The notes beneath the pieces are model-generated. The model ran no database searches, was not told the DNA's origin, and saw only the letters and a program-made list of their open reading frames with translations. From IMG/VR virus record IMGVR_UViG_3300042261_002391, positions 24,469-88,468 of that record: a stretch of 64,000 bases of DNA; one strand, given 5' to 3'. Numbering within the stretch: position 1 is the first letter of the stretch; each line of letters opens with the position of its first letter. Position numbers and translations under genes: made by a program. This document shows positions 24,400-62,553 of the stretch, one piece after another. This DNA comes from a virus.

Positions 24400-24501
24400 T
24401 TTTTATTTTTGATTATAATTTATTGAACAATAATAATATTCCAAATTCCGATATGGAATATTTGCGATTCTCAAATCACGAATCTGGTTATAATCAAACT
24501 A

Positions 24502-25885: not shown

Positions 25886-25972
25886 AACTTTTAGAGTTTA
25901 ATTATAAATACTATTGAATTGCAAATGTAATGAATAATTTTTAATATACAAGCAATTTCAAATAAATTTTTG

Positions 25973-26046
25973 AGATTCTAGTGGGATTCGAACCCACGAT
26001 TTTCAAGTTTTAGAGACCTGTGCAATAACCACTCTGCCATAGAACC
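25973..26046 (-). tRNA. amber suppressor tRNA (CTA anticodon)
   Basis: GGTTCTA/TAGAATC acceptor, CAGGT-CTCTAAA-ACTTG anticodon arm, U73. Confidence 0.92.
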
Positions 26047-27019: not shown

Positions 27020-27037
27020 GTTGAGTAAATTTTTTTG

Positions 27038-27123
27038 TAGCGGATACAGGATTCGAACCTGTGACTCCTTTTGGGAGTTCTGGCTTATGAGACCAGCGAG
27101 ATAGTCCACTTCTCTAATCCACA
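27038..27123 (-). tRNA. tRNA-Met(CAT), initiator-like, with long variable arm
   Basis: 1:72 mismatch, loop CTCATAA, extra arm ACTCC-CAAAA-GGAGT. Confidence 0.85.
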
Positions 27124-27128
27124 ATGTG

Positions 27129-27220
27129 CGGAAGGTGAGGGATTCGAACCCTCGGTGCGGAGGTTCTCTCCGCACGGTAGTTTAGCAAACTACTGATTTA
27201 AGCCACTCATCCAACCTTCC
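27129..27220 (-). tRNA. tRNA-Ser(GCT)
   Basis: Class II cloverleaf, loop TTGCTAA, G73. Confidence 0.95.
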
Positions 27221-28087
27221 TTAATTAATAACAATATCCTTATCTGAAAAAGCTTCGCATATTTCAGTATTTGGTTTAATCCATGCTTCACCACATTCAA
27301 GCAAATATCTTGGATATAAATGCTCTTTAGCAAATTTCCTAATATGCTCACAATCTTGAAGCGATAATAACAATACCTTTTCAAGCCGTTCTGCATTATT
27401 TGCAGCCAATGCTTCGCTAACTATACTCATACTTACTGAACATTAAAGTTTTTCAATATAAATGGATTTGGTTTACCTTTACATTCCGATAAATACCAAG
27501 GCAACAACTTTCTTCTCGCAAATGCACTAACAGCACTTCTAATATCACTCCAATCTGAACCGTTCATTGCATCAAGAATAAGCCTTTCCAAGATTTGAGA
27601 TGTTTCATATTGTACTTCAGATTTGCTTGCTTTAATTGTATTTTCAACTAATGTCTGTTCATAGGCTTCTTCAAGAGTATCGCCCGGATAATACCAATGT
27701 GGACATAAATGAGCTTCAATACCAAGTGTTTCGGCTTCATGCTCCCATTCAGGTTTTTCCCACCTATTTGTACGTTTATTTAAACACCAACCATTTTCGA
27801 TTAGATATTGTTCTCTTTCAAGATTTGTTTTCATATTATTCAACTTTTACGTGTTTCAATGAATCACATGGAACACAAGTTATCGATGAATATGAACCGC
27901 CTTGTGTGCTAACGCTATTAACAACAGCATAGCATAAGCCAGTCCGTTCATCTTTAAAATATGTCAAATTTTTCTTAACCTGTTTAATATCTGTTTCTTC
28001 ACTCATTTGACATGAGGCAACAAAAAATACCAATAATAACAATGCAATCTTTTTCATACCATTCTTTTTGCAATTATACGAAAACAA
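27221..28087 (-). CDS. three small proteins (27221-27430, 27433-27843, 27836-28087 lipoprotein-like VASC)
   Basis: ORFs downstream of ECF promoter at 28074-28102, so the last true start is likely MKKIALL. Confidence 0.6.
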
Positions 28088-28097
28088 TTTGAAATTG

Positions 28098-28793
28098 TTA
28101 CAACTTTTTCAATAAATTTTTATTTTCATTTCTTTTTTCTCTTCTTTTAGTTCTCCCGTTACCCTTATTTAATGCACCATATGTCGGTGTTAATGAATGG
28201 CAATTAGGACATAATAATTCTAAATTATTCAAGCTATTATTGTCAGAATTTCCATCTTTATGTTCTAATTGTATTGGTACTAATCCAGTAGTTTGATTAA
28301 TTTCATGCCATCCACACTTCATACATTTATCACCACATTTAAATATTAAATATTTTTTATATGTATCTGAGCTATATGTTGTGTTACCCGATTCGATATT
28401 ATTGAAAATTAAATTTTGTTTATATGTATTACTACATTCAACAGAACAAAATTTATTTTGATTACTGTTTAAATCATTTCCACAATTTAAACATTTTTTT
28501 AGCTTTACAAAATTGCTCACTCTTTTAGGATATTTTCTATTATTATATTTAGCACTACACGACCTACAACAAAATTTTCTACTATCATTAATCATTCCGA
28601 TAAATTCGCCACCACAATTTAAGCAAACAATCTTTTCACGTATATTAGATGTATTTTGTTTATATCCTAATTTATTTAATTTAACTTGAACGCTCCTAAA
28701 ACTACGATTTAATTCTTTAGCGATTCCTTCAAGTCTCATACCTGATTTATTCAAAAAAACAGCTTTTTCAATATCTTCTTTCGACCATTTCAT
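28098..28793 (-). mobile_element. HNH homing endonuclease
   Basis: CMKCG...LEHKDGN...N...LCPNCH; follows tRNA-Gly. Confidence 0.9.
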
Positions 28794-28851
28794 AATATAT
28801 AATTTATTATAAATACTATAAAATGCGAAAAAAGATTTTCGAAACTAATTG

Positions 28852-28925
28852 TGCGGGTAAAGGGAGTCGAACCCTCTCTATTTCTGCTTGGCAAGCAGAT
28901 GCACCACCAACTATGCGTCACCCGC
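28852..28925 (-). tRNA. tRNA-Gly(GCC)
   Basis: Cloverleaf, loop TTGCCAA. Confidence 0.9.
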
Positions 28926-28957
28926 AAATTAGCAGGAATTACTTCCTGCAATTTTTT

Positions 28958-29158
28958 TTAAGGCATGAGCCTAAATGTTAGCTTATTTCTAAGTTTTGGA
29001 TTGCCAACCCAATACACATATTCTTCAGCTTTTTCATAAGCATAGAATTGGGAAATAGCTTTAACATAGAACGTTAGAACTTCACCACTCGTAAGCGTGA
29101 ATTCTACCAACCAATATTTCATTGGTTGTTTTTCGATAACCTTTTTTGAATTCTTCAT
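28958..29158 (-). CDS. hypothetical protein
   Basis: 66-aa ORF. Confidence 0.55.
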   Translation of the reverse strand: MKNSKKVIEKQPMKYWLVEFTLTSGEVLTFYVKAISQFYAYEKAEEYVYWVGNPKLRNKLTFRLMP

Positions 29159-29227
29159 TCTTGCAATTTATCAGATAATCTGATAAACTACGAACTGTTA
29201 ACTTTTCTCATACTCATTATTACATTG

Positions 29228-29303
29228 AACGTCTGGAGGGATTCGAACCCTCATGTATCCAATTACACTTCTCTACGTTCGTAGCGTAGCGTGATACAGA
29301 CGC
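29228..29303 (-). tRNA. tRNA-Arg(ACG) with rearranged D-arm
   Basis: Good acceptor, anticodon and T arms; D-loop-like AATTGGATA lies 3' of the anticodon arm. Confidence 0.8.
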
Positions 29304-29307
29304 ATGT

Positions 29308-29898
29308 TTATTTTTTTCTGTTTTCGTATTTTAAGTATCTTTCTTTTCTTGCAGAATTTTTATTTTTAGATGTAAATGTATCCAATTGACTATTACAATT
29401 AGAACAAACTAATCGTAAATTTTCTCGTTTATTATTTGAAGCATCACCGTTAATATGGTCTAGCACAAATACTAAAGGTTTCCCATTCCAAAAATTTTCA
29501 ATACCACAAATCGCACATTTATTATCTTGTTCTTTTAATACGTGTTTTTTTACAAACACAGGCATATAATCGGCTCTACAATATTTTTCGTTATTTTTTA
29601 AAAAATCTTCGTATTTTATTTTTGCCTTATATTCAAACTCACATGTTTTATTACAATATTTCCCACAATAATAATCACATTCTTTACCACAATTAAGACA
29701 ATAAACAATCTTTTTTTTACCCTTATTTGCTGGAACAAAATTAATTGGGAATTTAGCTCTCCTTGGTAATGAAATTCCTAAACTATTACATATTTTTTTT
29801 ATATATGTATCGGAAACATTATACATTTTACCGATTTCACGATATGTTTTTTTTTCAACAAAAATTAAATTTTCTAATTCTTCTTTAATGTATTTCAT
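29308..29898 (-). mobile_element. HNH homing endonuclease
   Basis: CAICG...LDHINGD...NLRLVCSNCN. Confidence 0.9.
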
Positions 29899-29981
29899 AA
29901 TATTTTTTTATATAAATACTATGAATATTAAAATCGAACTAAAAAATCAAAAATAAATTTTATTGTTATTGGTTCGATTAG

Positions 29982-30053
29982 TAGGGATTAGAGGATTCGA
30001 ACCTTTACAATTTTGTTAGGAACAAAATATGCTATCCATTACATCAAACCCCC
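29982..30053 (-). tRNA. tRNA-Arg(CCT)
   Basis: Loop TTCCTAA; paralogue of the TCT gene. Confidence 0.9.
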
Positions 30054-30181
30054 ATTTAATTTTCATCTGTTTTAATTGGTATATAAATAACCTCACCGCA
30101 ACATAAACCATAGTCACTTCCATTAATTGGAGCTACTGGTTGATTACATTTAGGACAATATGCCATATGTTTTAAATTTAG

Positions 30182-30253
30182 TAGGAATTAGAGGATTCGA
30201 ACCTCTACGATTTCGTTAGAAGCGAAATATGCTATCCATTACATCAAATCCCC
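30182..30253 (-). tRNA. tRNA-Arg(TCT)
   Basis: Loop CTTCTAA. Confidence 0.93.
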
Positions 30254-30291
30254 GTTAGTGAACATTACCCTATTACCTATAGAGGCAAATA

Positions 30292-30516
30292 TTATTTCTT
30301 TCTAAAGAAAACTTTTAATGGGTTTAATTTAGCAAAGATAAAGTAGAGTATAAAGAAAAATAGAGACAATAGGTAGAAAATAGAAATTGAAAACCAATAA
30401 CTTCCCGTTGTGTCTATTAACCACTTCAGAATAGCGTCGTAACCCATAGGATTGAAAAATGTTCCTAAAAAGAGGAACAGAGTCGCTAGTTTCTCCCTGT
30501 TTATTACCTTCATCAC
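30292..30516 (-). CDS. small membrane protein
   Basis: Two hydrophobic segments. Confidence 0.65.
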   Translation of the reverse strand: MMKVINREKLATLFLFLGTFFNPMGYDAILKWLIDTTGSYWFSISIFYLLSLFFFILYFIFAKLNPLKVFFRKK

Positions 30517-30559
30517 TTTCCATATTTTTCGAATTAATAAATGTAATTTTTTTCATATG

Positions 30560-30633
30560 AGCCGAGGACAGGACTCGAACCTGCAACTTCCTGATTACAA
30601 GTCAGGCACTCTACCAATTAAAGTTACCTCGGC
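30560..30633 (-). tRNA. tRNA-Thr(TGT)
   Basis: Loop CTTGTAA. Confidence 0.95.
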
Positions 30634-31082
30634 ATTGTTCTTTCTTTTCGACCATTTCCACGATTAGCACCTTTATATGTTGGTGTTAAACTATGACAAT
30701 TAGGACATAAAAGTTTTAAATTTTCTTCTTTATTATTCAAATAATTACCATCAATATGTTCGATTTCCAACGGTATTTTACCAGTGTATTGATTAACTTC
30801 AGACCATCCGCATTCAGAGCATTTGTTGGAGAATTTTTCAAATATATATCTTTTAATGTGACATGATAATTGATATTCACCTCTCATTCCATCAACTAAT
30901 CCAGCTTTCCATTTATCGATATACTCCAGATATTTAATATCTGCGCCAATTTTTGCTTTTTCAGATGAATGTAATTTTGAGCAATCTTTGCAATATACCA
31001 CCTTCCATTTTTTTATTTCGGAAGGTCTTCGATAGATTGGTTTATTACAATCACTACAATTACAATTTGGTTTTCTCACCAT
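30624..31082 (-). mobile_element. HNH homing endonuclease (stop overlaps tRNA-Thr 5' end)
   Basis: CSECG...IEHIDGN...LCPNCH; lies between two tRNA-Thr genes. Confidence 0.9.
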
Positions 31083-31099
31083 ATTTATTTTCTATTTTG

Positions 31100-31171
31100 A
31101 GCCGACTATTGGAATCGAACCAATATTTACGGGTTACAAAGCCGTAGTAATAACCGTTATACGAAGTCGGC
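31100..31171 (-). tRNA. tRNA-Thr(TGT), variant with C31:C39 mismatch
   Basis: GCCGACT/AGTCGGC acceptor, loop TTTGTAA. Confidence 0.85.
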
Positions 31172-31176
31172 ATTTG

Positions 31177-31521
31177 TTATATTATATGACCAATTCTCTC
31201 TTTCACATGTGCTTTATATCTTTCGATATTTCTAACACTACCACGTGTTGCCGGGTGATAAATGAATTCATGCGATATTTGGTGCTTTTTAAGCTCTTTT
31301 TCGACCTTTCTGCCCATTGCTATTACAACACCATTAAATGATTGAATATCGTTTATATCATCTTCAAATACGTTTTTAAACTCACATTCATTCCAATCAA
31401 TTCCAATGTTTTCAACTGCTTTTGATAAATGTGCTGCAGCTAATCGCTTATCAACCCAAGTAACATTCATTCTAATTGCAGTATTACTTCTTCTTTCTCC
31501 GACAAATAAAAATCGTTTCAT
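31177..31521 (-). CDS. small uracil-DNA-glycosylase-superfamily-like protein
   Basis: LFVGE, VIAMGRKV, IYHPA motifs. Confidence 0.5.
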   Translation of the reverse strand: MKRFLFVGERRSNTAIRMNVTWVDKRLAAAHLSKAVENIGIDWNECEFKNVFEDDINDIQSFNGVVIAMGRKVEKELKKHQISHEFIYHPATRGSVRNIERYKAHVKERIGHII

Positions 31522-31525
31522 ATTA

Positions 31526-31888
31526 TTAATTGTTAATCATTTCGTTTTTAGATTCCAAAAATTTTTCTAAAATCAATTCCTTCCTGAATGTTGTTGTTAC
31601 ATATTCATCAATTTTATTCAAAGTTAGGTTTTTAATTAGTTCTTCAACAGTAATGTATTTACCTTCAGAATAAACCATTGGTGGATATGAAACACCTTTC
31701 CAAATACGTGGAGTAAAATATTTTACTCCCAGCCTTGCCCAACCATAGATTGCAATTTCTTTTGGTCTAATATTGGTGATTTTTTGGCATTCACTACAAT
31801 AGCATAAAGAAACCGGAGCATAATCAGTAGAATAAACACCTTCACTTTCCCGTTCTTCACAAAAATCACAAATTGTTGCGTTATTCAT
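31526..31888 (-). CDS. hypothetical protein with CxxC pairs
   Basis: 120-aa ORF. Confidence 0.6.
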   Translation of the reverse strand: MNNATICDFCEERESEGVYSTDYAPVSLCYCSECQKITNIRPKEIAIYGWARLGVKYFTPRIWKGVSYPPMVYSEGKYITVEELIKNLTLNKIDEYVTTTFRKELILEKFLESKNEMINN

Positions 31889-31909
31889 TCTTTTTATTTA
31901 AAAAGTTTG

Positions 31910-31981
31910 CGCTCCGAGGGAATTACGATATCCCAACCCTCACTTTAACAGAGTGACGCTCTACCTTTGAGCTACCGAAGC
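31910..31981 (-). tRNA. tRNA-Asn(GTT), atypical T-loop ATCGTAA
   Basis: Loop CTGTTAA, G73. Confidence 0.85.
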
Positions 31982-32163
31982 ATTTGTTTTAAACATCATC
32001 GATGTCTTTTTGTTTTTTCCTATCATACTTCTTTTTTGATGTATGAATTTTGTTTACTGTCACCCAACCAGTGGAATTTTCTAGTTCGGCTTCTCTCGAC
32101 CCTTTTCTCGATGCGAGAACATAGTCCGATAGTTTCTTCTTTTTCATTTCACTAGTTTTTTTG

Positions 32164-32235
32164 CGCCCCGAATAGGACTCGAACCTATAATCTATTGGTT
32201 AACAGCCAATTGCTTCACCATTAAGCTATCGGAGC
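32164..32235 (-). tRNA. tRNA-Asn(GTT)
   Basis: Canonical cloverleaf. Confidence 0.95.
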
Positions 32236-32952
32236 ATTGTTTATTTTTTCATGTAATTCAATATGACAATTAGCACATAGTAATATACATTTATCCACTT
32301 CTTTTTTTAAACGTTCGATTGAATAACTTTTACCACTAACCGTAAAATCTTTCATATTTGGATTGGTGTGATGAAATTGTAACACACTTATTGACTTATC
32401 ATATCCACAAATTTCACACTTACCTCCCTTATATTGAATTAACTCAATTTTTTTTCGCTTTCTCCATTCAATAACTGATTGAGATTTTGTTTTTGTCTTT
32501 TCCCTCTTAAATATTTTCAAATCGGGTATTAATTTTCTCAAAGTATCTCTACTGGTATTAAAATGCTTTGCAGTTAATCTTAGTGATTTTACGGTATTAT
32601 AGTATGTAATAATCTCATCAACATCAAATCTTTTTTTTACAGTATTAATTGGTTTATTTAACTTATATTTTCTACATATTTTAATTAACTTATCTTCACT
32701 AATGTCAACTATTTTAAGTATTTCATCATATGTTTTTTCTTCAATCCTTAATTTTTTTATTAATTCGATTGTCCTTTCATCAACGCCAAATAAAAAACTG
32801 TTAATATTACCACCAAGACCAGCATTATTTAAATGATATGATACCGTACTTTTACTACAATTTAAGTTTTTGGCGATTTCATTAATACTTTTACCCCTTT
32901 TCCTTAATTCTAAAATTTTTTCTTTCATATTATTAATACCGATGATTAACAT
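32221..32952 (-). mobile_element. HTH + HNH homing endonuclease (C-terminus overlaps tRNA-Asn)
   Basis: KSINEIAKNLNCSKSTVSYH; CEICG...FHH...LCANCH. Confidence 0.88.
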
Positions 32953-33017
32953 CTTTTGTTAATAAATACGTATAACTGCAAAAAAGTTCGATTCTTTATC
33001 ACAAAATTAATATTTTA

Positions 33018-33089
33018 GCTCTCGTATTGGACTCGAACCAATCCCGCCCTGCTTCACGCAGAGTGTACCTTCCACTATACGAACGAAAT
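33018..33089 (-). pseudogene. degenerate tRNA (loop CGTGAAG)
   Basis: T and D arms present, weak acceptor, G33. Confidence 0.65.
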
Positions 33090-33188
33090 AACTACTACTC
33101 AACTTCACCGCTAAATTCCATTTTTTGTAGAGAACATAAATCTAATCAATGATGTTAGCGCATCATGTTTCAACTTCCAATTCTTTTG

Positions 33189-33262
33189 TAGTGAGGGTGA
33201 GGGTCGAACTCACACATCTTTTGCTTATAAGACAAATGCCGTCACCATTTAGCTACCTCACC
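33189..33262 (-). tRNA. tRNA-Ile(TAT)
   Basis: TTTGT-CTTATAA-GCAAA, A73. Confidence 0.88.
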
Positions 33263-33271
33263 ATTTATTAA

Positions 33272-33478
33272 CTACCATTCAATAGTAACATCTTTTACTG
33301 ATTCAACATCAATTTCATGATAATATTTCCTATGTTTTTTATTGAAAAGAGTGCTTCTAATATTATTAAAACTACAATCACTTGGGCAATGAATTAGTGC
33401 AGTTCCATTTCCTTTTTCTTCCGTGCCTTGACAATAATATGTATAGGTATATTCAAGTAAAACATATTTCCATTCCAT
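33272..33478 (-). CDS. hypothetical protein
   Basis: 68-aa ORF. Confidence 0.5.
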   Translation of the reverse strand: MEWKYVLLEYTYTYYCQGTEEKGNGTALIHCPSDCSFNNIRSTLFNKKHRKYYHEIDVESVKDVTIEW

Positions 33479-33483
33479 AACAA

Positions 33484-33885
33484 CTAACTTAAAATTTGTT
33501 TTACAATATTACTTACAATAATGTTATCAGCTTTTCCTTTGTACAGTGCATTAAATTTGCCCATTATCATTCCGAATGATTTCATGTCCAATGCGATTGC
33601 ATAATCAGCAATAATTGAATCAACTGCTATCTTAATTTCATCATCAGACATTAATTCTGGTAAATATGCAGCATAGAAATTAGCTTCCTCGATATTTGAA
33701 CATTCAATCGCCGAATTTTTCATTTGTTTCAATACTTCAAACGCAACTGAATCGGGAAGATTTGTAGTCCCTTTACGCTGTAATTCACTTTTAATCATTT
33801 TCAAACGATTGATTAGCACGTTGTCACGATTTTTTTCTGCAAGTGCTTGTTTCAATTCTTCATTTACTTTTTCCTGCAATAGCAT
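33484..33885 (-). CDS. GatB/YqeY domain protein
   Basis: LKQALAEKN...LKMIKSELQ...YLPELMSDDEI...MKSFGMIMG...GKAD. Confidence 0.9.
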   Translation of the reverse strand: MLLQEKVNEELKQALAEKNRDNVLINRLKMIKSELQRKGTTNLPDSVAFEVLKQMKNSAIECSNIEEANFYAAYLPELMSDDEIKIAVDSIIADYAIALDMKSFGMIMGKFNALYKGKADNIIVSNIVKQILS

Positions 33886-33959
33886 AGTTTCAATTTTTAA
33901 ATTAACACACAAAATTAACTAAATAATTCAATCTACCAAAATATTTGATAAATTTTTTG

Positions 33960-34033
33960 AGCAGCATCCCGGATTTGAACCGAGACCTCAACCTTGGAAG
34001 GGTCATATGCTAACCGTTAAACACCAATGCTGC
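33960..34033 (-). tRNA. tRNA-Gly(TCC)
   Basis: Loop CTTCCAA, U73. Confidence 0.92.
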
Positions 34034-34104
34034 TTATGTGATAAAGAGATAATCAATATGAAGCAATTAAATCGACATACCTCGAACTTTCCGTCATTAC
34101 CTCG

Positions 34105-35166
34105 CTATAATGTCCGGGAGTTTATCTCTTCACATTTTAAGTTAATTAAATCATCATAACTATATTCTTTATTTTCAAGTATTAATAATACAGAAAACCC
34201 CAACTTAATATATTCATTAAACTTATCAATAATATTATTTTTATTTAATGTAAATTTTGATTTAATTTCAATTATTTTATTTTCATGAGGAATATAAAAA
34301 TCTGGGATTGCTACTCTATATTTTTTATTAGATGAATCCCAATATTTAATTCTAAAATACTCTACTTCATAATCAATTTTATTATTATCTAAATTAATTG
34401 CAAAATTTAATTCATATGAACTTCTATAGTATATTTTTTTTCCGTTCCATGTTTCATGCCAGCCATGTTTATATTGGTATTTAGTCTCTGAACTTAAAAC
34501 ATTATTGTTTAACTTACCTATCAAACATGCGTTAATTTCACTCTCGGATAGATTTCTAGTTTTAATACCAAATGATTTTAATATATGCAATATATTTTCA
34601 GAATTTTTATTATAATTATATTTAATTGCAATATCTTTAGGTGATAAATTATTGTCAAAATATTCCTTTAACAATAACTCCCTTATCCTATAATACTCTT
34701 CAAATATTTTCAATGTTCCAACAGAATCCAAATCAAACCCAAATTCAATTAAATTATTAAACCATTTTTTTGAGTGTTTACATATTTCAATATTTACACA
34801 TTTTTCCTGTCCACAAATTTTACATAATTTAGGTTTGTTATTTTTTTGTGACTTTATCGATAAAGTATTTTTTATTTTGTTCTTAGTTGCTTCACTCACT
34901 ATTCTAATTTGATTATTGAATTTAGCTGAACATGAATGTGAACAAAAATTAAGTTGTCTTTTATTCAATGAAGTATTACAAAATTTACATTTATTAGTAC
35001 ATTCAACTCTTCGTCGATTATATGTATTTAAGTCAAAACCAACAGATTTTGCAATATTTTTCAACTTTAAAATACCTGCAGAATTATCTGAAAATCCAAA
35101 ATAAACATACGCTTCTGTTCTACTATTAAAACTATTTAAAATATCAAACATTTTGCTATTTTCCAT
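34105..35166 (-). mobile_element. PD-(D/E)xK (TnsA-like) homing endonuclease
   Basis: YRSSYEL...YEVE...IPDFYI...IEIKS; follows tRNA-Phe. Confidence 0.8.
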
Positions 35167-35263
35167 ACTAAAGTTTATAATAAATACTTACTTTAGCGGA
35201 AAAAACACGTTATGAGCCAAATATAATAAACATATTTCCAAGGTTCATAATAATCATATTTCG

Positions 35264-35336
35264 TTGGAAAGGTGGAAATCGAATCCACTTAAACGGTTTT
35301 TCAAACCGTCAGATACACCACGTCTCTCACTTTCCA
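35264..35336 (-). tRNA. tRNA-Phe(GAA)
   Basis: ACGGT-TTGAAAA-ACCGT, divergent D arm. Confidence 0.85.
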
Positions 35337-35374
35337 ATATTAAATTTCACATATAAAGAAATTCATATAAAAAT

Positions 35375-35528
35375 GGTTCTGGTGTGAGCCTCCTACTCAC
35401 GTCTCCCGATGATATTTCGACCATCATAAATGTCTCGGAGATTATTGATGTATCAAACCGTATTGCCAAGTACGTTTACATTAACTTTCTACTGAACATT
35501 AGGTCAGCCTCTTATGCAATCCAGAACC
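35375..35528 (-). ncRNA. unidentified structured RNA inside tRNA operon
   Basis: Closed by GGTTCTGG/CCAGAACC, several internal stems. Confidence 0.45.
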
Positions 35529-35602
35529 TTCACATCTAAAGATTCATGACTTCTTTTCGATGCACAAACCAAAACGATGGTGTCCTATCCATTTTGGTTT
35601 TG

Positions 35603-35697
35603 AGGAAGAAGTCGGACTCGAACCGACACACCACGTTCTTCACATGATTACTCGTAGTTTTCAAGACTACTCCCTTACCAATTAGGGTTATTCTTCC
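35603..35697 (-). tRNA. tRNA-Ser(TGA)
   Basis: Class II cloverleaf, loop CTTGAAA. Confidence 0.92.
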
Positions 35698-35707
35698 ATT
35701 ATTATCG

Positions 35708-35788
35708 TAGTGATGGTGGGATTCGAACCCACATTACCTTACGGTACACCTTATCAGGGTGCTGCCTTAACCAATCGACCACATCACT
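35708..35788 (-). tRNA. tRNA-Ile(GAT) with long variable arm
   Basis: Loop CTGATAA; extra arm ACC-GTAA-GGT. Confidence 0.88.
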
Positions 35789-35851
35789 ATATTTTAGTAA
35801 TACTATGCATTAATTATTGAAAAGCGATAATTTTCGCATAATATTACTATG

Positions 35852-35926
35852 AGCACGGAGTGGGATTTGAACCCACGACTTTACAGTTTTGCAGACTGTT
35901 GCCTTTGACCACTCGACCATCCGTGC
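35852..35926 (-). tRNA. tRNA-Cys(GCA), copy 2
   Basis: Nearly identical to 4653-4727. Confidence 0.95.
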
Positions 35927-35960
35927 ATTATTTTTACCCAACATGTCAATGAACTAAAAC

Positions 35961-35991
35961 AAAAAACCCGAAACTTTTGATTTCGGGTTTT
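35961..35991 (-). terminator. attenuator terminator of tRNA operon 1
   Basis: AAACCCGAAA-TCAAAAG-TTTCGGGTTT + U tract, between leader ORF and first tRNA; boxA-like GTTCATTGACAT follows at 35943-35954. Confidence 0.9.
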
Positions 35992-36010
35992 ACTTTATGC
36001 TTAATATTCT

Positions 36011-36145
36011 TTACGAACCTATCGCATCCTCTACACCCGAATCAATTACAATATTTCTGCCTGTAATGTTAGAACAGAATATACCATTTCCATTGCGACT
36101 TGATGTCCCAAAATTTGAACTTGATATGGTTGTAAAAGTATTCAT
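36011..36145 (-). CDS. attenuator leader peptide of tRNA operon 1: MNTFTTISSSNFGTSSRNGNGIFCSNITGRNIVIDSGVEDAIGS
   Basis: Translated by hand; residues 2-32 use only N,T,F,I,S,G,R,C. Confidence 0.88.
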   Translation of the reverse strand: MNTFTTISSSNFGTSSRNGNGIFCSNITGRNIVIDSGVEDAIGS

Positions 36146-36173
36146 CGTTTTTATTTTTAATTGTTAATATTAA

Positions 36174-36233
36174 TTCGTTTTCATCTAAATACGTTGCAAA
36201 GGTAAAAAAGGTTACACAATTTGCAAACATTTT
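36174..36233 (-). promoter_or_regulatory. composite promoter (housekeeping TTTG-N19-TACCTTTG + ECF TGTAACC-N16-CGTAT + late-like GTATTTA)
   Basis: Near-identical copy at 60951-61010. Confidence 0.8.
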
Positions 36234-36295
36234 TCAGGAAAAAATGAAAAAAAAATCATTAATTTTTATAAGTATTTAATTTTCAAACATATCCA

Positions 36296-39052
36296 TTATG
36301 TGGTTACATCAACAATTTTTATTGTATTATCACTACCATCAATATATTTTAGCTTAATTGTACCTGTAGATGTTTTAATAATTTCCTTAGAATAGTCGGC
36401 AAAGATATGTGTTGCACTTGAAAAATCAATTCCGACAAAATTAATATTACCAAATATCATATTTTGTTGAAATGTCACTCCCGATATTGGTATATTAAAA
36501 TATGAAACCAAATGACCGAAAGTATTTAAATTACTACCACTTGATAATGTGATATCTATACAACTATCTCCAAATATATTATTAAAACAATTATCATTCA
36601 AATGGATGCTATTGCAAGCAACTCCAAATATGTTTGAATCACACGTAATGCTCAAAAAATTACCATTACAATGATTGCCAAATACATTATTAGTGCAATT
36701 CTCACCAATATTGTTATACATACATTTATTACCTAAAATAATTGAGTTACAATGACTGCCAAAATTGTTTTCCACACAATTAAAACCTAAAACTGTTGAG
36801 GTAACTCCTGATGAAAATACATTTGATATATTAGCAGCACCTAAAGTACAATTATTTAACCCAAATCCCGATGTATTTATTTGACAATCATCGCCAAAAG
36901 TGTTTGAGGTACACTCATCGCCAAAAGTGTTTGTGGAATTATTTGAATCAAAACGATTAAAGCCACAAGTATTGCCAAAAGTGTTCGCATAACAGTTATA
37001 GCCAAAAATGTTCCCATAACAAGTATTGCCAAAAATATTTTCATTACAACCATCACCAAAAATATTTGAATGACAACTATTACCAAAAGTATTTGAACCA
37101 CAATTATCACTAAAAATATTTGAATAACAACTATTGCCAAAAAAATTCACTGAGCAACTATTGTTAAAAGTATTTGAATAACAGCTATCGCCAAAAGTGT
37201 TTCCATAACAAGTATTGCCAAAAATATTTAAATAACAACCTACGCCAAAAGTGTTTCCATAACAAGTATTGCCAAAAATATTTAAATAACAACCTACGCC
37301 TAAAGTGTTTGAGCTACAATTATTGCCAAAAATATTTTCACTACAACCATCAGCTAAAATATTTCCACTACAGTTAATGCCAAATCTGTTATTATAAGAG
37401 CCACCGCTTAAAGTGTTTAACCTACAAATATCACTAAAAATGTTTTCATTACAACCATTAGCTAAATTATTGGTATTACAGTTATCACCCAAAATATTTG
37501 AATAAGAACCACTAAATACATTATCATAACAACCATAACCCAAAGTATTGTTATAACATATATTATTAAAAATATTATTATAAGAATAACTTCCAAATTT
37601 ATTGTAATAACAATTATATGTTAAAGTATTATTATTACAATTATCAGCAAAAGTATTGTTAGCACACACACTATATAACGTGTTTGAATAACATCCATCA
37701 CCAAAAGTATTATTTACAGAATTATTACCTAAAAAATTTGACTGGCAACCACCATTAAAAATATTTGAAGAGCAATTATTTCCAAACGTGCATAAACTAA
37801 AATTTTTTCCTAAAATATTAAAATTACATGACTTACCAAAAACATTTGACTGACAATAATCACCAAAAACATTCGAGGCAAATTCCCTTCCAATAATATT
37901 ATTATCACACCCATTACCAAAAGTATTTGAGTCACAGTTTATACCAAATATATTACGAGTACAATTATTACCAAAAGTGTTTGATGTAAATAAATCGGAA
38001 ATAGTATTTAGCTGAAAATCAGCCCCATATTTATTATTAGTAATTGAAGAGAATTGGCTATCAATATTACTATTAGATAAATAAAATACGTTATTTTGTA
38101 ATATCGATGGGATGTACCCTGTTTGGCTATTTACGCCATTAATTATTGAATCGAAAATATTATTCTTAACTAATAATTCATATGTATTATACTCATCAAA
38201 ACCTTGAAACGTTAAACAGTCAATATAGTTCGAATAACCATCAGAATAAGACATATAGCTCCAATATTGTGTTATATTGTAGTCAACAATTTTTGCCCAA
38301 GATGTATCATCTGTGACATCATTTAAATTATCATCAATTACACTAAGATAAACACCACCTGTAGAACCTGTTACTTGTACATAAGTATTTACGCTGTATG
38401 CAGTCCCACCACTCCACTGAGGATATCCATTAGTATCTTCAGTAAACAAATATCTTCTGAATTTAACATTTCTAAAGTCATACCCTAAGCTATTATTGTT
38501 TTTTACGTCATGTCTTTTATATATAACACCCTTAAAATCAGGTATTAATGTAACATTAGTTAAATCAGGATTTAAAGCTGTGCCACCAGCATTTTCAGCA
38601 GTCGCAAAACCATAATCTAGCATCCAATTGTTTGGATTCCAGTCGTAATAAATTATATCTTGTGGATATTGTTGTGAATATGCTTGTGGATAGAATTCGC
38701 TAATTGTACTTGCTTTAATAATTAGCGGTTCTAAGTTCCCAACATTAATATCATCAAGTCTATCGTAACCATCAAACATATAATGAACAGTTCTATAATC
38801 ATTTATTCTATAGAAAGTATTGGGTGTTAATCCGGAGGTAGTTGTTAAACCAGTTAATTGATTATAAGTTAAATTAATCACACCTGCAGTATTACCACTG
38901 ATTTCAACAAAATATCCTTCACCATTGAGATAGGTGTCTGGGTCTTGTGATAGTGTAGTATTTATTGGTGATGATGATACATAAACATCGCCAGTTCTAA
39001 GATAATTTCTATAATCGGAAACTGAAAGTTTATCTAGTTCTTGTGTTGCCAT
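36296..39052 (-). CDS. large beta-helix repeat protein (9-aa NxFGxxCxx repeats), probable virion fibre/spike
   Basis: Dozens of 9-aa repeats; exact 54-bp tandem duplication near 37189-37300; late-type promoter. Confidence 0.75.
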   Translation of the reverse strand: MATQELDKLSVSDYRNYLRTGDVYVSSSPINTTLSQDPDTYLNGEGYFVEISGNTAGVINLTYNQLTGLTTTSGLTPNTFYRINDYRTVHYMFDGYDRLDDINVGNLEPLIIKASTISEFYPQAYSQQYPQDIIYYDWNPNNWMLDYGFATAENAGGTALNPDLTNVTLIPDFKGVIYKRHDVKNNNSLGYDFRNVKFRRYLFTEDTNGYPQWSGGTAYSVNTYVQVTGSTGGVYLSVIDDNLNDVTDDTSWAKIVDYNITQYWSYMSYSDGYSNYIDCLTFQGFDEYNTYELLVKNNIFDSIINGVNSQTGYIPSILQNNVFYLSNSNIDSQFSSITNNKYGADFQLNTISDLFTSNTFGNNCTRNIFGINCDSNTFGNGCDNNIIGREFASNVFGDYCQSNVFGKSCNFNILGKNFSLCTFGNNCSSNIFNGGCQSNFLGNNSVNNTFGDGCYSNTLYSVCANNTFADNCNNNTLTYNCYYNKFGSYSYNNIFNNICYNNTLGYGCYDNVFSGSYSNILGDNCNTNNLANGCNENIFSDICRLNTLSGGSYNNRFGINCSGNILADGCSENIFGNNCSSNTLGVGCYLNIFGNTCYGNTFGVGCYLNIFGNTCYGNTFGDSCYSNTFNNSCSVNFFGNSCYSNIFSDNCGSNTFGNSCHSNIFGDGCNENIFGNTCYGNIFGYNCYANTFGNTCGFNRFDSNNSTNTFGDECTSNTFGDDCQINTSGFGLNNCTLGAANISNVFSSGVTSTVLGFNCVENNFGSHCNSIILGNKCMYNNIGENCTNNVFGNHCNGNFLSITCDSNIFGVACNSIHLNDNCFNNIFGDSCIDITLSSGSNLNTFGHLVSYFNIPISGVTFQQNMIFGNINFVGIDFSSATHIFADYSKEIIKTSTGTIKLKYIDGSDNTIKIVDVTT

Positions 39053-43382: not shown

Positions 43383-44429
43383 TTACACAAGTATTTTTAA
43401 AAATTCGTCATAATTTTCATCTAAAATTAAAACATACACATATCCACACGCCTCAACAGATTTTCTTTTTGCATTAATTTTATCCCATCCACCTTGTCGT
43501 TTTAACCAATATGCTGATTTAATTTCAATGATATTATTATTATACTTAAAATCAGGTAAATGCCATTTTCCATATTGACTATCTAAATATTTGAATGTTG
43601 GCGAATTATTAATATCATCAATAATACTAATATTCTCACAATATTCAAGGAAACGAAACTCATGTAATGATTGATAATATAATTTAGTGTTTTTATATTG
43701 TTTAATCATATGATTAGTAATTGGGTTCTCATTGTATTTACACATATTTTGTGATGCTAATTCTTTAAATTCATCAGTTTTTGAATAATGAGTCACACCA
43801 TAATTTTTTAATATCGAATCTTTTTGTTTTTCTTTAACATATGTTAACGATTGGGGATATTTAACACCATACTTATTTAAATTATTAGTGATTCTTTTAT
43901 TAACTAAAGCCTTAGACTGCATACAATACTCAACGTCATAATTATTTTTCAATGTGTTTTTTGATTTTTCCTTTACTTCTTCTAATTGAAAAACATTTTC
44001 TACTTGGTATTTGCTAATAACAGTATCTTTTACTTTCGATTGATTCCAATGTGATGGCTCTGCAATCTCAGAACATTTATGTGAACAGTATTTTCTAGGC
44101 TTTCCTCGATAAAATTCCACATCATTATCACAATTAGGATTCTGACATTTCGGGTGACTATGTTTTTCAACATAATTTAATTCTTGCCACTCATATTTAT
44201 TGTGTCCAATTGCATATTTTGAAAATTTGCCCCTATTAAAATTCGGTCGTTCATCACAATATCCGCATTGACATTTAGGCTCGATTTCATTTAAAACAGT
44301 TAGCACATAATAATCAGCAGTTGACATATTATGTACGTCACGTATATGATTAGTTAAATCACCGCCTAAATTGTTTTTAAATTCCTTTCCACAAATTTCA
44401 CATTTAATCATAAAAAAATCCTCCAGCAT
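43383..44429 (-). mobile_element. free-standing PD-(D/E)xK homing endonuclease next to nrdJ
   Basis: C2H2 finger, KYGV repeats, HLPDF...IEIKS. Confidence 0.75.
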
Positions 44430-49038: not shown

Positions 49039-49130
49039 TGGAACATGTAGGATTCGAACCTACTTACTGCGACCAATACGACTATTTAGCGATGCAGGTT
49101 GGATTTACAGTCCAGTGCCGTTAATGTTCC
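49039..49130 (-). tRNA. tRNA-Tyr(GTA) with rearranged D-arm
   Basis: Perfect acceptor and T arms; only 8 nt between acceptor and anticodon stems; GTCGT-ATTGGT in the variable region. Confidence 0.8.
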
Positions 49131-49213: not shown

Positions 49214-49227
49214 AAATATATAAAAAC

Positions 49228-49255
49228 AAAAAACCCGAATCTTTCGAATCGGGTT
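49228..49255 (-). terminator. attenuator terminator of Lys/Tyr tRNA operon
   Basis: AACCCGATTC-GAAA-GATTCGGGTT + U tract. Confidence 0.9.
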
Positions 49256-49286
49256 CTTTTAATTTCTGGCTTTGCAAAATCATTGC

Positions 49287-49382
49287 TTATTTTTTGCGTC
49301 CTGCAGAACAAAACATTCCCGATTCCATAAGAGATTTCTTATAAGATTTATAACCGTAATATTTTTTTGCAGTAGCTTTCAT
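49287..49382 (-). CDS. attenuator leader peptide: MKATAKKYYGYKSYKKSLMESGMFCSAGRKK
   Basis: Translated by hand; 10 of residues 2-16 are K or Y. Confidence 0.88.
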   Translation of the reverse strand: MKATAKKYYGYKSYKKSLMESGMFCSAGRKK

Positions 49383-49417
49383 TTCTTTATTTTTTAATTG
49401 TTCAACTTTTAATAGTG

Positions 49418-49459
49418 CAAATATACGCATAAATACGAAATAAACAAGAAAAGGTTACA
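49418..49459 (-). promoter_or_regulatory. composite promoter (ECF + late-like + TTG-N19-TATATTTG)
   Basis: TGTAACCTTTTCTTGTTTATTTCGTATTTATGCGTATATTTG. Confidence 0.75.
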
Positions 49460-50384: not shown

Positions 50385-51515
50385 TTATCCTACTTCATAA
50401 CCATCCTTAAACGGTTTTGAATATGTTGGTCTGATTTTCTTCCATATAATTTCATCATATGGTCTTTTATCAAACATTTTAAATAAGATGCTGCAATATT
50501 CAGTTTTAAGTGCTTCTGCTGCAAATTCTTTACGTGTTTTAATATCATTGATATGATAAATACGAATGAATTCTTTCAACGATAGTCTTTCAATTGAGTT
50601 ATATTCGTTTTCCAACGAAGCAACTGTTTTTTTCAACCAATCATAAAATTCGTCAGGTACTCGGTCAAGTAACGAATCAAAATCATAATTATTCATCAAA
50701 TGTTCCCATACCGTAATATTTGAAACATTCGTTAAAATACCATGTAATCTGATATATTCACTAAATTTTACTTTAACACGAAAACCGTCAGAAAACCTAA
50801 CAACAAAACCTTCACGATTTTCTTCTTCAAGTGCCTTCAAATCATTAAGATTCTTTATGTTTTTTAATTCATATTTCTTAACAACAGTAAAATACTTAGA
50901 ATACATCGCAATCAATTTATCGTATGGTAATTCTTCCCCGGTTGAAGTTATAATGTTACCTAGTAACACTAATTCCCTTCTATCACCATAATCGACAACA
51001 ATACGATTTTCTTTATATAAAATTTCGAACAAATATGTGCAATTACGATTCAATGCATCAAAAGTATTATTTTCAATCATTTTACGTGCTTCAATAACTT
51101 GCTCGGAAATAAATGAACCACGACTAGCAACAATCCATTGCATTATTTCTTCATAAAAGAAAACTATAATCAATGACCCATCCATTTTTTCAAAAATTTC
51201 AAATTCTTTAGACATATCAATTTCTGATGGGTCGTGTTCTTCAAAATTCTTGAATTTCATGAATGGTCTAGCAAGAATATTACCATTGCCATCAACAACC
51301 ATTCCACGACAAGATAATGTGTATACATCCCAAAATCTTTTAGATTGTACTTTAGGTGAATAATTCAAAATCCAAATATCATATTCTGGATGCTTATTGG
51401 CAACAATTAATCCATTGTCAATATATTCCCGCAATAATGCCCAATCAACTTCTTCCAACATTTCCATTCTATGTCCCCCTCTTTTTAGGATATGAGTATA
51501 ACTTGTTTCTTTCAA
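50385..51515 (-). CDS. T4 Rnl1-family RNA ligase
   Basis: EKMDGSL, SRGSF, FE, EGFVV, RVKVK (true start probably the internal MEMLEE). Confidence 0.9.
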   Translation of the reverse strand: MKETSYTHILKRGGHRMEMLEEVDWALLREYIDNGLIVANKHPEYDIWILNYSPKVQSKRFWDVYTLSCRGMVVDGNGNILARPFMKFKNFEEHDPSEIDMSKEFEIFEKMDGSLIIVFFYEEIMQWIVASRGSFISEQVIEARKMIENNTFDALNRNCTYLFEILYKENRIVVDYGDRRELVLLGNIITSTGEELPYDKLIAMYSKYFTVVKKYELKNIKNLNDLKALEEENREGFVVRFSDGFRVKVKFSEYIRLHGILTNVSNITVWEHLMNNYDFDSLLDRVPDEFYDWLKKTVASLENEYNSIERLSLKEFIRIYHINDIKTRKEFAAEALKTEYCSILFKMFDKRPYDEIIWKKIRPTYSKPFKDGYEVG

Positions 51516-52332
51516 GAAATTCTCGTCTCAATTGTTTTGTTTCATATTTATTCTCGCCTAAAACATATACGTATTTATGCTTTTTACCGATTTCCCGGGA
51601 TTCGCACGATAACATATAATCTTTAGATAATTTTTTTATCCTTTTAGCAATATCTTCAGGCATTTGGTCAAACTTTACACTATCACCTTTCTGCCAATCA
51701 AGTTGCCAAATAATTCCATCATTTTTTGCAACTTTTCTATATACTGAACGTGCTCTAAAATATCTGTCTGATACCCATCTACCTGATTCAATTCTATATT
51801 GTTTGCTTGCACCAGATTTCTTACCAATATAATAAAAATTACATGCTTGATAAAGAGTACCTAATTCATTTGCCTCCACATCAGAATATGCGACAAATAC
51901 TCTAAATCTGGTGTTTTTAACCATCCAATTAATAGCGTACATTATTAATGAACTTCCCAAATTTTTGGGTGACCAACTAATGCATGCACCTCTGCTAATT
52001 AATCTTTCAATCTTTTTGGTCTTTTCTCCAACTAATTTCGAAAAAACACTAGGCATATCCATTATCACAACACCTGCTAATATACCATTATATCTTGCAG
52101 TAAAAATGTGCGTTGGATATAAACTCATTCTGCCAAGCCATTCATGTCGTTCGATAAATTCTTTTACTTCATCGTAACACGCATCCTTTTCTTCGAATTG
52201 TATTGTAAAATCAGAAACTCTTAAATCCTTAACATCGTCTTCAGATAAATTTGCTCTTTTTAAATCTTCATCCCGGTTAGCAACCCTTATTTCATATTGC
52301 CAACAATTTTCAGTGTTTGTTTTTATTCCCAT
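51469..52332 (-). CDS. Mom-like GNAT DNA-modification protein
   Basis: ISRGACISWSPKNLGS...VAYSD...GTLYQACNF. Confidence 0.75.
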   Translation of the reverse strand: MGIKTNTENCWQYEIRVANRDEDLKRANLSEDDVKDLRVSDFTIQFEEKDACYDEVKEFIERHEWLGRMSLYPTHIFTARYNGILAGVVIMDMPSVFSKLVGEKTKKIERLISRGACISWSPKNLGSSLIMYAINWMVKNTRFRVFVAYSDVEANELGTLYQACNFYYIGKKSGASKQYRIESGRWVSDRYFRARSVYRKVAKNDGIIWQLDWQKGDSVKFDQMPEDIAKRIKKLSKDYMLSCESREIGKKHKYVYVLGENKYETKQLRREFLERNKLYSYPKKRGT

Positions 52333-60719: not shown

Positions 60720-60758
60720 GTATTTTTCAACCCACAATTTCAATGAACTACATAAAAC

Positions 60759-60790
60759 AAAAAAACCCGGCTTAATCTTAAGTCGGGTTC
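60759..60790 (-). terminator. attenuator terminator of tRNA operon 2
   Basis: AACCCGACTTAA-GA-TTAAGCCGGGTT + U tract; boxA-like GTTCATTGAAA at 60738-60748. Confidence 0.9.
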
Positions 60791-60817
60791 TTTAAACAAT
60801 AACAATAGAAAGGAGGT

Positions 60818-60925
60818 TTATTGTTTCAAATTTTTGAACCCGACTTTGCATAACATATCCTCTGCATCTGCCCATAAGAGGTCAACTGCCACAACCACTG
60901 CTAATATGTTTAGTAAAGTCTTCAT
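60818..60925 (-). CDS. attenuator leader peptide: MKTLLNILAVVVAVDLLWADAEDMLCKVGFKNLKQ
   Basis: Translated by hand; residues 8-25 use only L,A,V,D,W,E,M. Confidence 0.88.
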   Translation of the reverse strand: MKTLLNILAVVVAVDLLWADAEDMLCKVGFKNLKQ

Positions 60926-60950
60926 TTTGTTATTTTTTAAATTTTTAACT

Positions 60951-61010
60951 ATTCGTTTCATCTAAATACGTTGCAAAGGTATAAAAGGTTACACAATTTG
61001 CAAACATTTT
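60951..61010 (-). promoter_or_regulatory. composite promoter, near-identical to 36174-36233
   Basis: TTTGCAAATTGTGTAACCTTTTATACCTTTGCAACGTATTTAGATGAAACGAAT. Confidence 0.8.
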
Positions 61011-61078: not shown

Positions 61079-61495
61079 CTAAATATTAAATATTTTTGGC
61101 AGACCTAATGATTTATGGTATGAATTGAATATTGATTTAATATTTAATGTTCCAGCAGGATTCATTGAATGAACCAATATTGTTTCAGGAAGTGCTAGTT
61201 TATTTTCGGCACAGTAATCAATCAACCATTTGGCACAATCATATCCGGTTTTTTCAACGAAGCTATCGTAAAGTTCGTTATATGTTTCCGAACCATGTAA
61301 ATCCGGGTCATAGTGTTCATCAGCTAAATCATGGTCAAATGAAACCATTGTAGGCAATCCGTTTTCTTCAATAGCTTTTATGAATTCATTATAACTACGG
61401 ACAACTTTCCAGCCAAGCAAATATAATTGATTATAGGTATAGTCGAAACTATCTTGAGGTTGACGATAATCGTCGAGATATAGATTATAAGTCAT
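61079..61495 (-). CDS. cyclic-phosphate processing receiver-domain protein (RNA repair associated)
   Basis: LYLDDYR, SFDHDL, TGYDCAKWL, VHSMNPAG. Confidence 0.85.
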   Translation of the reverse strand: MTYNLYLDDYRQPQDSFDYTYNQLYLLGWKVVRSYNEFIKAIEENGLPTMVSFDHDLADEHYDPDLHGSETYNELYDSFVEKTGYDCAKWLIDYCAENKLALPETILVHSMNPAGTLNIKSIFNSYHKSLGLPKIFNI

Positions 61496-61788: not shown

Positions 61789-62553
61789 TTATGAAAATGC
61801 TTCTTCTAAGCACATTATTAATTTTTGCATGTTTGCTCGATAAAAGCCAGCACTATTAGTACAACCACATTCGACTATTTTATACTGACCATTAACCAAA
61901 CACACATCCATTACAAACGTTTCATTTATTTCAAACAACTTTATCATTTCTCTTACGAAAGAATATGCTGATTCATCAACAAATTCATCTAAACAATACC
62001 TACCGCCTAAACTATACTGACTTGCGGTAGCAATTTCACCTTTTACAATCCAAAATCGAATTTCTTTTTGTATTTTCTTTACACTTGAAATCTGTATTTT
62101 AGTGTCAAGGTTTAATATTGTTGAATGACCGTTTGTTGATTGTTCGTTTTTAAATATATTCCATTGCTCCATATCGAAAACACGCCCGGTAAATACTTTT
62201 GTATCTTCAGTAGGTCTAGCGAAAAAAATATCTTCACGAAAAAAATTATCACCAAATTTAACGATTTCCGAATCATAATTCAACAAATTGTCTTTATAAT
62301 ACTTACTATATACTTCGTAATCATGATTTTCGCATAAAGTTGAACCCGGATACCAACCATATTGTTTGGAGATTCTCGACATTTTTACAGCACCAAAAGG
62401 AAACACATCATTTCTTTTGGTTTTAAATTTAAATGTTTCAATGAATGGTCTTACATTAACAATTTCATATGGTAAATTTAAACGATTCAATGCTAGAATC
62501 AAACTGTTATAGTTTTCTTCACGGAATACATTTTCTTGAACGATATAATACAT
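61789..62553 (-). CDS. ATP-grasp domain protein (DUF4343/R2K-like)
   Basis: FARP...KVFTG, EIRFWIV.G, VMDV, KIVE...NSAGFY. Confidence 0.85.
   Translation of the reverse strand: MYYIVQENVFREENYNSLILALNRLNLPYEIVNVRPFIETFKFKTKRNDVFPFGAVKMSRISKQYGWYPGSTLCENHDYEVYSKYYKDNLLNYDSEIVKFGDNFFREDIFFARPTEDTKVFTGRVFDMEQWNIFKNEQSTNGHSTILNLDTKIQISSVKKIQKEIRFWIVKGEIATASQYSLGGRYCLDEFVDESAYSFVREMIKLFEINETFVMDVCLVNGQYKIVECGCTNSAGFYRANMQKLIMCLEEAFS

Follow-up and report, generated by a model that had tools for sequence, protein, structure and literature searches.

The region directly upstream of a large tRNA array in a lake phage appears to be a ribosome-mediated leader-peptide transcription attenuator placed ahead of a phage tRNA operon, a reading to which we assign a probability of roughly 0.8. 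It lies in the 64,000-nucleotide stretch analyzed here (positions 24,469 to 88,468 of IMG/VR record IMGVR_UViG_3300042261_002391), referred to below as the window, which holds three such units (Table 1). What we describe is probably a known mechanism, with tRNA genes as the regulated targets, in a lake phage. A sequence-only reading of unit 1 had proposed an unusually multivalent attenuator, and this proposal is supported here, as its sequence-level predictions were met and were repeated in paralogues and in related phages. The attenuator function itself is only inferred, because there are no expression, RNA, ribosome, or termination data; the sequencing runs that match the stretch are freshwater and lake metagenome DNA, with no RNA run listed.

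Table 1. Coordinates of the features of the tRNA leader units in the window.
Feature	Position	Strand	Description
tRNA block of unit 1	27037..35926	minus	17 tRNAs, interrupted by homing-endonuclease genes and a YqeY-like ORF
Conserved box GTTCATTGACAT	35943..35954	minus	between the terminator and tRNA-Cys (35926)
Intrinsic terminator of unit 1	35955..35991 (hairpin 35991-35963)	minus	12-bp G+C-cored stem, 5-7 nt loop, T run
Leader ORF of unit 1	36145-36011	minus	ATG start, 44 codons, TAA stop at 36013-36011
Antiterminator 5' strand ATTGATTCGGGTG	36034..36046	minus	codons 34-38; predicted to pair with 35988-35977
Sensor run	36050..36142	minus	codons 2-32, only N, T, F, I, S, G, R, C
A-rich 5' untranslated leader	36146..36185	minus	no Shine-Dalgarno motif on reading the sequence
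Promoter-like motif GTAAC-N-GTATTTA	36186..36215	minus	GTAAC, 18-19 nt, CGTATTTA; overlaps a TAccTTTG box
Unit 2	49222..49458	minus	promoter motif, K/Y-rich ORF 49382-49287, GGAATCGGGA segment, terminator 49257-49230
Unit 3	60755..60992	minus	promoter motif, ORF 60925-60818, AAGTCGGGTTC segment, terminator 60791-60762

The most striking property of the leader ORF of unit 1 is its composition. Residues 2 to 32 had been described as drawn solely from N, T, F, I, S, G, R, and C, with all eight present, and translation of the ORF bears this out, as it does the accompanying account of the codons: isoleucine is written with both ATA and ATT, serine with TCA/TCT and AGT, glycine with GGG, GGA, GGT, and GGC, and arginine with AGA and CGC, AGG being absent. 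These eight amino acids make up 0.44 of the phage's proteins, so that the probability of a run of 31 residues (p^31) is 8e-12. A six-frame scan of the 88-kb contig returned 31 as the longest run restricted to the set, the next ones being 21 and 19, and the maxima in 60 Markov-1 genomes matched for dinucleotide content were 15.4 +/- 1.6, with none above 20. The set was not picked post hoc, because it is the amino acid content of the downstream tRNA block. Altogether, 37 of the 43 residues of leader 1 fall within the set of its own block (binomial P = 1.3e-8), and 34 of its 43 codons are read by tRNAs of the block under strict wobble.

The block contains, in order, tRNAs for Cys, Ile(gat), Ser(tga), Phe, Gly(tcc), Ile(tat), Ser(tga), Asn (two), Thr (two), Arg(tct), Arg(cct), Arg(acg), Gly(gcc), Ser(gct), and a tRNA with a CAT anticodon. 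The list given in the sequence-only reading was right as to the eight amino acids but counted two serine tRNAs where there are three (two TGA and one GCT), and its end of the array at 27129 was incomplete, as the CAT tRNA (27123-27037) directly follows Ser(GCT). tRNA calls were those of standard ARAGORN plus two Rfam-supported tRNAs; relaxed ARAGORN with introns was dropped because it produced too many false calls. Arg(acg), at 29303-29228, was missed by ARAGORN and is identified by an Rfam match and the anticodon loop CTACGAA. In this gene the acceptor and anticodon stems are just 7 nt apart, and the anticodon arm is followed by a D-loop-like stretch. A second Tyr(gta) tRNA (49039-49130, minus) was also matched by Rfam and missed by ARAGORN, which gave in addition several "???" calls in the blocks of relatives.

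The identifiable protein genes between the tRNAs of the block are mostly homing endonucleases (HNH, HTH-HNH, and TnsA-like). Among or near the tRNAs of the window we located nuclease genes at 34105-35166, 32221-32952, 29308-29898, 28098-28793, 43383-44429, and 63137-64000 (all minus), of the types TnsA-like/DUF7487, HTH+HNH, HNH_3, HNH, phrog_3339 homing endonuclease, and DUF559, which are likely homing endonucleases or related enzymes. A YqeY-like (GatB_Yqey-related) ORF lies between Gly(tcc) and Ile(tat) at 33484-33912 (minus). One relative (G007) has this block in compact form (11 tRNAs in 1.3 kb), and the interruptions in the window therefore look secondary. A weak terminator-like site is found inside the block at 30479-30460, and a single transcript covering all 17 tRNAs of the 9-kb interrupted block has not been shown. 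The tRNA region is closed by a CTA-anticodon tRNA of the amber suppressor type (25972-26046, minus), and 13 of 82 long ORFs end in TAG.

Upstream of the leader, the promoter-like pattern has exactly three matches in the 64-kb window, one ahead of each leader unit, with 0.16 expected, and the motif also precedes the units of relatives; an exact 20-mer of the promoter found no match in IMG/VR. At the other end, the leader's TAA is separated by a spacer of 20 nt from the terminator, whose hairpin has a calculated energy of -13.5 kcal/mol. The two strands of the proposed pairing, TTCGGGT (36041-36035) and ACCCGAA (35988-35982), are present as described, the latter lying within the 5' arm of the terminator. 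The best duplex between the leader of unit 1 and the terminator 5' arm plus loop comprises 11 pairs with one bulge and reaches -14.0 kcal/mol (RNAduplex), compared with -7.3 +/- 1.9 kcal/mol for shuffled leaders (p = 0.007).

Between the terminator and the first tRNA there is a conserved box with a TTGACA core. Exact matches of GTTCATTGACAT occur in the window only at 35954-35943 (unit 1) and 60748-60737 (unit 3), and over the window and relatives (L005, L006, L009, L002, L099, and others) the box can be written as GTTCWTTGAMATGTTGG and is usually found 22-29 nt before the 5' end of the tRNA. It might serve in processing, in pausing, or in the binding of a protein. We rejected it as a sigma-70 promoter for the tRNAs, since a -10 element at 17 nt spacing would land inside the tRNA. 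In several sister units only 3-16 nt separate the terminator from the tRNA, and therefore no promoter fits between them.

Folding of the full transcript of unit 1 without a ribosome gave a terminator probability of 0.94, and when a ribosome was masked with the complete terminator present, the terminator won at equilibrium in most units, whatever the position of the ribosome. The switch must therefore be kinetic, as in classical attenuators such as trp. To represent this situation, transcripts were cut before the 3' arm of the terminator, the ribosome mask was extended 13 nt past the first A-site base, and the RNA upstream was removed. In these folds, the 5' arm is predicted to pair with the leader segment at probabilities of 0.5-0.9 for all A-site positions inside the cognate run, and in 35 of 35 units this pairing disappears no more than 1-2 codons from the end of the run. 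In unit 1 the change takes place at codons 31-33, around the last codon of the run (codon 32), in agreement with the earlier observation that the restricted composition stops just before the antiterminator. Comparison of folds with and without a ribosome footprint, a check suggested in the sequence-only reading, thus predicts an antiterminator that is available as long as the A site is in the cognate run.

Folding without a ribosome gave a more heterogeneous picture. Before the 3' arm is made, the predicted probability of the antiterminator is 0.69 in unit 1 and varies from 0.01 to 0.92 across units. The minimum-energy fold of unit 1 pairs codons 2-8 with the antiterminator segment, a possible protector, and this pairing is not conserved across units. 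In unit 1 the antiterminator segment lies 7 codons (21 nt) ahead of the stop codon. A ribosome halted at the stop would thus leave the segment exposed, and once translation has run smoothly, either tight coupling or the pairing of codons 2-8 must prevent antitermination.

The two other units of the window repeat the arrangement with different amino acids. In the leader of unit 2, K or Y accounts for 11 of the first 15 residues past the start, and the tRNAs downstream are Lys(ctt), Tyr, Tyr, and Lys(ttt). The leader of unit 3 is rich in L, A, V, D, E, M, and W, with 18 consecutive residues from this set, and precedes tRNAs for Asp (two), Glu (two), Val (two), Leu (four), Ala (two), Met, and Trp. 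Near the end of each ORF there is a segment complementary to the 5' arm of the terminator, GGAATCGGGA in unit 2 and AAGTCGGGTTC, a perfect 11-mer, in unit 3.

Relatives were retrieved through the cREC-domain gene that lies beside unit 3, yielding IMG/VR contigs of 46-327 kb with the same order of tRNA blocks. Units were cataloged by a simple rule, i.e., a terminator before a tRNA and then the first in-frame ATG downstream of a GTATTT motif; one unit of G003, with an interrupted T run, was missed by the rule and added by coordinate. The catalog holds 35 units from 12 phage records and divides into four classes, the tRNA blocks of which partition all 20 amino acids (CISFGNTR, KY, DEVLAMW, and PHQ). 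The Pro/His/Gln unit is truncated where the window's contig ends and is present in relatives. Pooled by class, the leaders are enriched in their own set 1.84x, 2.34x, 2.03x, and 4.99x, and in the other sets 0.1-1.05x. Homologues of leader 1 occur in six other phage records, and those in G002, G003, G004, G006, and G007 have 79-88% of their residues in the set where the block could be scored; the copy of G004, at the end of its contig, was excluded from set scoring. No tRNAs were present in three additional 20-kb stretches of G008 or in one such stretch of G007, and blastn of positions 35900-36300 against INPHARED phages gave no match.

Within each class the leader peptides are conserved in alignments, and the ATG and stop are retained in all leader units. 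In-frame dN/dS ranged from 0.47 to 0.73 over the leader classes and was about 1.0-1.45 in shifted frames, with the exception of the +2 frame of class 1, where the control value of 0.63 is close to the in-frame value of 0.52. Replacements at variable columns also tend to stay within the set, with 37 of 60 in class 1 (0.44 expected, P = 0.004) and 25 of 40 in class 3 (P = 2e-4).

The complementarity between leader and terminator is equally general. In 33 of 35 units, the last codons of the ORF include a segment able to pair with the 5' arm of the terminator (p <= 0.05 compared with shuffles), at an energy near that of the terminator. The arms are represented by 27 distinct hexamers among the units, and the leader segments covary with them, as in TTCGGG-CCCGAA, ATCGGG-CCCGAT, and GTCGGG-CCCGAC, in GAATGGGG with CCCCATTC, and in TGCTTGGG with CCCAAGCA. 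The Lys/Tyr unit of G005, whose two tRNAs were confirmed by Rfam (anticodons GUA and UUU), combines GTGAAGATCAG with CTGATCTTCAC. Contiguous pairs beside the G/C core numbered 3.42, compared with 1.78 +/- 0.22 when leaders were permuted among units, and the maximum in 5000 permutations was 2.67. In a more distant phage (L049:281-480, plus strand) we also observed a 14-codon leader with five consecutive Gln codons, followed by a terminator and two Gln tRNAs; there, the segment complementary to the terminator arm sits just past the stop codon.

The relative G005 has its block divided in two, and the leaders are divided accordingly. The first is made mainly of I, T, and R and stands ahead of Thr, Arg, Arg, and Ile tRNAs. 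The second lacks R, is composed of N, F, S, G, I, C, and L, and is followed by tRNAs for Phe, Ile, Ser, Gly, Gly, Ser, Asn, Leu(tag), Leu(aag), and Cys. Leu(tag) and Leu(aag) have been transferred here from the D/E/V/L/A block and have taken their codons along: the Leu codons of this second leader are CTA, CTG, and CTT. In G005 and G008, the block-3 leaders write Leu with TTA/TTG alone, and the blocks retain no Leu tRNAs other than Leu(taa) and Leu(caa). Every remaining block-3 leader combines CTA/CTC with TTA/TTG, and Leu(tag) and/or Leu(aag) are present in its block. Such co-variation of codons and isoacceptors would be the prediction of a sensor of decoding and not of a micropeptide. At the level of sequence and its comparison, then, the parts of the units, their conservation, the covariation of the arms, and the match between leader codons and tRNAs can be regarded as demonstrated.

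Measured against what characterizes attenuators, unit 1 has a short ORF between a promoter and the first regulated gene, an arrangement kept in relatives; the ORF is enriched in codons cognate to what the operon supplies; a factor-independent terminator precedes the first regulated gene; and an antiterminator that depends on the position of the ribosome shares a strand with the terminator, although this last point is met only computationally. The expectation that the regulated genes are those of amino acid biosynthesis or of synthetases is not met, as tRNAs take their place.

We propose that transcription would start at the dedicated promoter, near 36190, and that a ribosome would load on the A-rich leader and translate the 44-codon ORF while the polymerase approaches the terminator (35991-35963). 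Codons 2-32, cognate to the downstream tRNAs, would sample most of the isoacceptors. When a charged tRNA is scarce, decoding would be slow and the ribosome would stall upstream of codon ~31, leaving 36046-36034 free to pair with the 5' arm and loop of the terminator (35988-35977); this antiterminator pairing would block the terminator and let the polymerase enter the tRNA genes. With fast decoding, the ribosome would cover the segment while the terminator forms, and transcription would stop. The outcome would be a negative feedback on the tRNA supply for eight amino acid classes, and the sister units would act likewise for Lys/Tyr and for Asp/Glu/Val/Leu/Ala/Met/Trp, as would those of relatives for Pro/His/Gln. 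Translation of the ORF, stalling, read-through, and the physiological signal that is sensed are all inferences.

The same architecture might respond to another signal, either amino acid starvation or the general pace of translation (uncharged tRNA, or a shortage of ribosomes after host shut-off), and the codon match would then only set which shortages count. We consider this improbable. In its favor, a stalled ribosome cannot distinguish a missing tRNA from an uncharged one, as established for the trp and his attenuators. Besides, many units are predicted to form the antiterminator in the absence of any ribosome, so that the operons would open on an overall failure of translation as well. However, amino acid starvation is not relieved by extra tRNA, and the choice of codons follows the isoacceptor genes from block to block, which points to the encoded tRNAs as the regulated quantity.

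The conservation of the peptides within each class would also be expected of functional micropeptides, in which case the hairpin would be an ordinary terminator or insulator of the upstream genes and the tRNAs would be expressed from other promoters; a TTGACA-core box does follow the terminator in units 1 and 3. This is very improbable in our view, as the composition of the leaders tracks the tRNA content over four classes and through the block split, a private promoter is located upstream of the terminator, and the leader segment covaries with the terminator arm, the tRNA begins only 3-16 nt past the terminator in several units, and, as noted above, a -10 element 17 nt beyond TTGACA would land inside the tRNA. 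Even less credit can be given to chance, or to a by-product of composition, either an AT-rich frame or a vestige of the N/F/G/C/S-rich repeats found in the upstream 918-aa gene. The second-longest run among called ORFs (19) is indeed in this neighboring protein, but the run of 31 is far above the simulated maxima and has homologous leaders in relatives. A relic of the repeat protein was also sought by BLASTP of the leader against its neighbor and rejected (E = 5.5). The 918-aa protein itself (36296-39052, minus) consists mostly of short N-x-F-G-x-x-C-like repeats; it had no Pfam or PHROG match, and no relative of it was confirmed in IMG/VR.

Over the whole contig, only 2 of 82 ORFs have a Shine-Dalgarno-like motif and the region upstream of starts is 47% A, and TAnnTTTG boxes are found at the leader promoters. 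The near absence of Shine-Dalgarno motifs, the A-rich starts, and the TAnnTTTG boxes point tentatively to a Bacteroidota host, an inference from sequence features alone. Leader-peptide attenuation has been proposed for the trp operons of Bacteroidota.

The tRNA blocks are flanked by genes linked to RNA repair or modification (50385-51515, 61079-61495, 51469-52332, and 61789-62553, all minus). A T4 Rnl1-like RNA ligase (phrog_562) is located just upstream of the Lys/Tyr unit, a protein with a cREC_REC cyclic-phosphate-processing receiver domain adjoins unit 3, and a Mom-like protein and an R2K ATP-grasp protein are also found beside the blocks. This neighborhood fits a setting of tRNA repair or counter-defence. 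A wider interpretation, which we put forward only tentatively and would not ourselves bet on, is that of a self-regulating phage tRNA supply, in which four attenuators covering the 20 amino acids report codons that cannot be decoded and only the missing subset is transcribed. The shortage could be caused by decay of host tRNAs after shut-off or by cleavage through an anticodon-nuclease defence, and it is alongside this last idea that the existence of a separate Lys/Tyr unit, beside a T4 Rnl1-like ligase, may be cited.

If this were true, the units would be a ribosome-based sensor of tRNA-targeting immunity and would represent a new logic of attenuation in which the sensed molecule is the product. 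On the main reading itself, the ribosome would gauge decoding capacity directly and feed back on the genes for the missing molecules, in what would be a natural sensor with eight inputs that resolves isoacceptors. Such control would account for the regulation of the big tRNA sets of large phages and for the grouping of these sets by amino acid, and it would provide a testable link between phage tRNAs and host defences that target tRNA. In uncultured phages, the leaders could also serve to predict which tRNAs share one transcription unit. Leader-peptide attenuation itself belongs to textbook knowledge; its use in the control of tRNA genes is not described in the papers that could be searched. 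Full-text literature searches returned no account of it, with most subscription journals outside their scope, and for this reason the absence is not proof.

The nearest mechanism is found in the multivalent attenuators of enterobacteria, such as thrL (Thr, Ile) and the ilvGMEDA leader (Ile, Leu, Val), together with trpL, hisL, pheL, and leuL. They would have in common with the phage units a short translated ORF rich in regulatory codons between the promoter and the first gene, an intrinsic terminator, a mutually exclusive antiterminator set by the position of the ribosome, and the reading of several amino acids at once. However, enterobacterial attenuators regulate biosynthetic enzymes, whereas the phage units would regulate tRNA genes, and the sensed molecule would therefore be the operon's own product. 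Unit 1 samples eight amino acids and most isoacceptors, compared with two or three amino acids in the enterobacterial cases, and the phage-borne units differ also in the lack of a Shine-Dalgarno motif and, in many of them, of a conserved 1:2 protector hairpin. The Rfam models Thr_leader (RF00506) and His_leader (RF00514) scored only 23.8 bits against a threshold of 55 and 20.9 bits against a threshold of 49, respectively, the match being mainly over the terminator in both cases.

Other leaders resemble the phage units in single aspects. The pheM leader attenuates pheST, an aminoacyl-tRNA synthetase operon, and it is cellular and reads one amino acid; it would share with unit 1 the leader-peptide attenuation of a gene of the translation apparatus rather than of a biosynthetic pathway, the difference being that its target is a synthetase. 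The Bacteroid-trp leader motif of Rfam, said to have been described by Weinberg in 2010, reportedly belongs to Bacteroidota trp operons, reads only Trp, and controls biosynthetic genes. The motif had no match at unit 1, and its likeness lies in that leader-peptide attenuation can work in hosts without Shine-Dalgarno initiation, the type of host suggested here. T-box riboswitches are different in that they bind uncharged tRNA directly through RNA, with neither an ORF nor a ribosome, and the T-box covariance model gave no gathering-level match in 25000-64000 and none at E <= 10 in 35940-36260.

As to function, the nearest published case that we found is that of Anabaena sp. PCC 7120, whose trn operon is an extra tRNA array that is horizontally mobile and remains silent until translation is impaired; direct repeats and the repressor TrcR govern it at the promoter (PMC8421152, PMC10272220). 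There is no leader peptide in its control, and the terms "attenuat," "leader," and "terminator" are absent from the text of the 2021 Anabaena paper. The response of the Anabaena array is global, whereas the phage units would act on one subset of tRNAs at a time.
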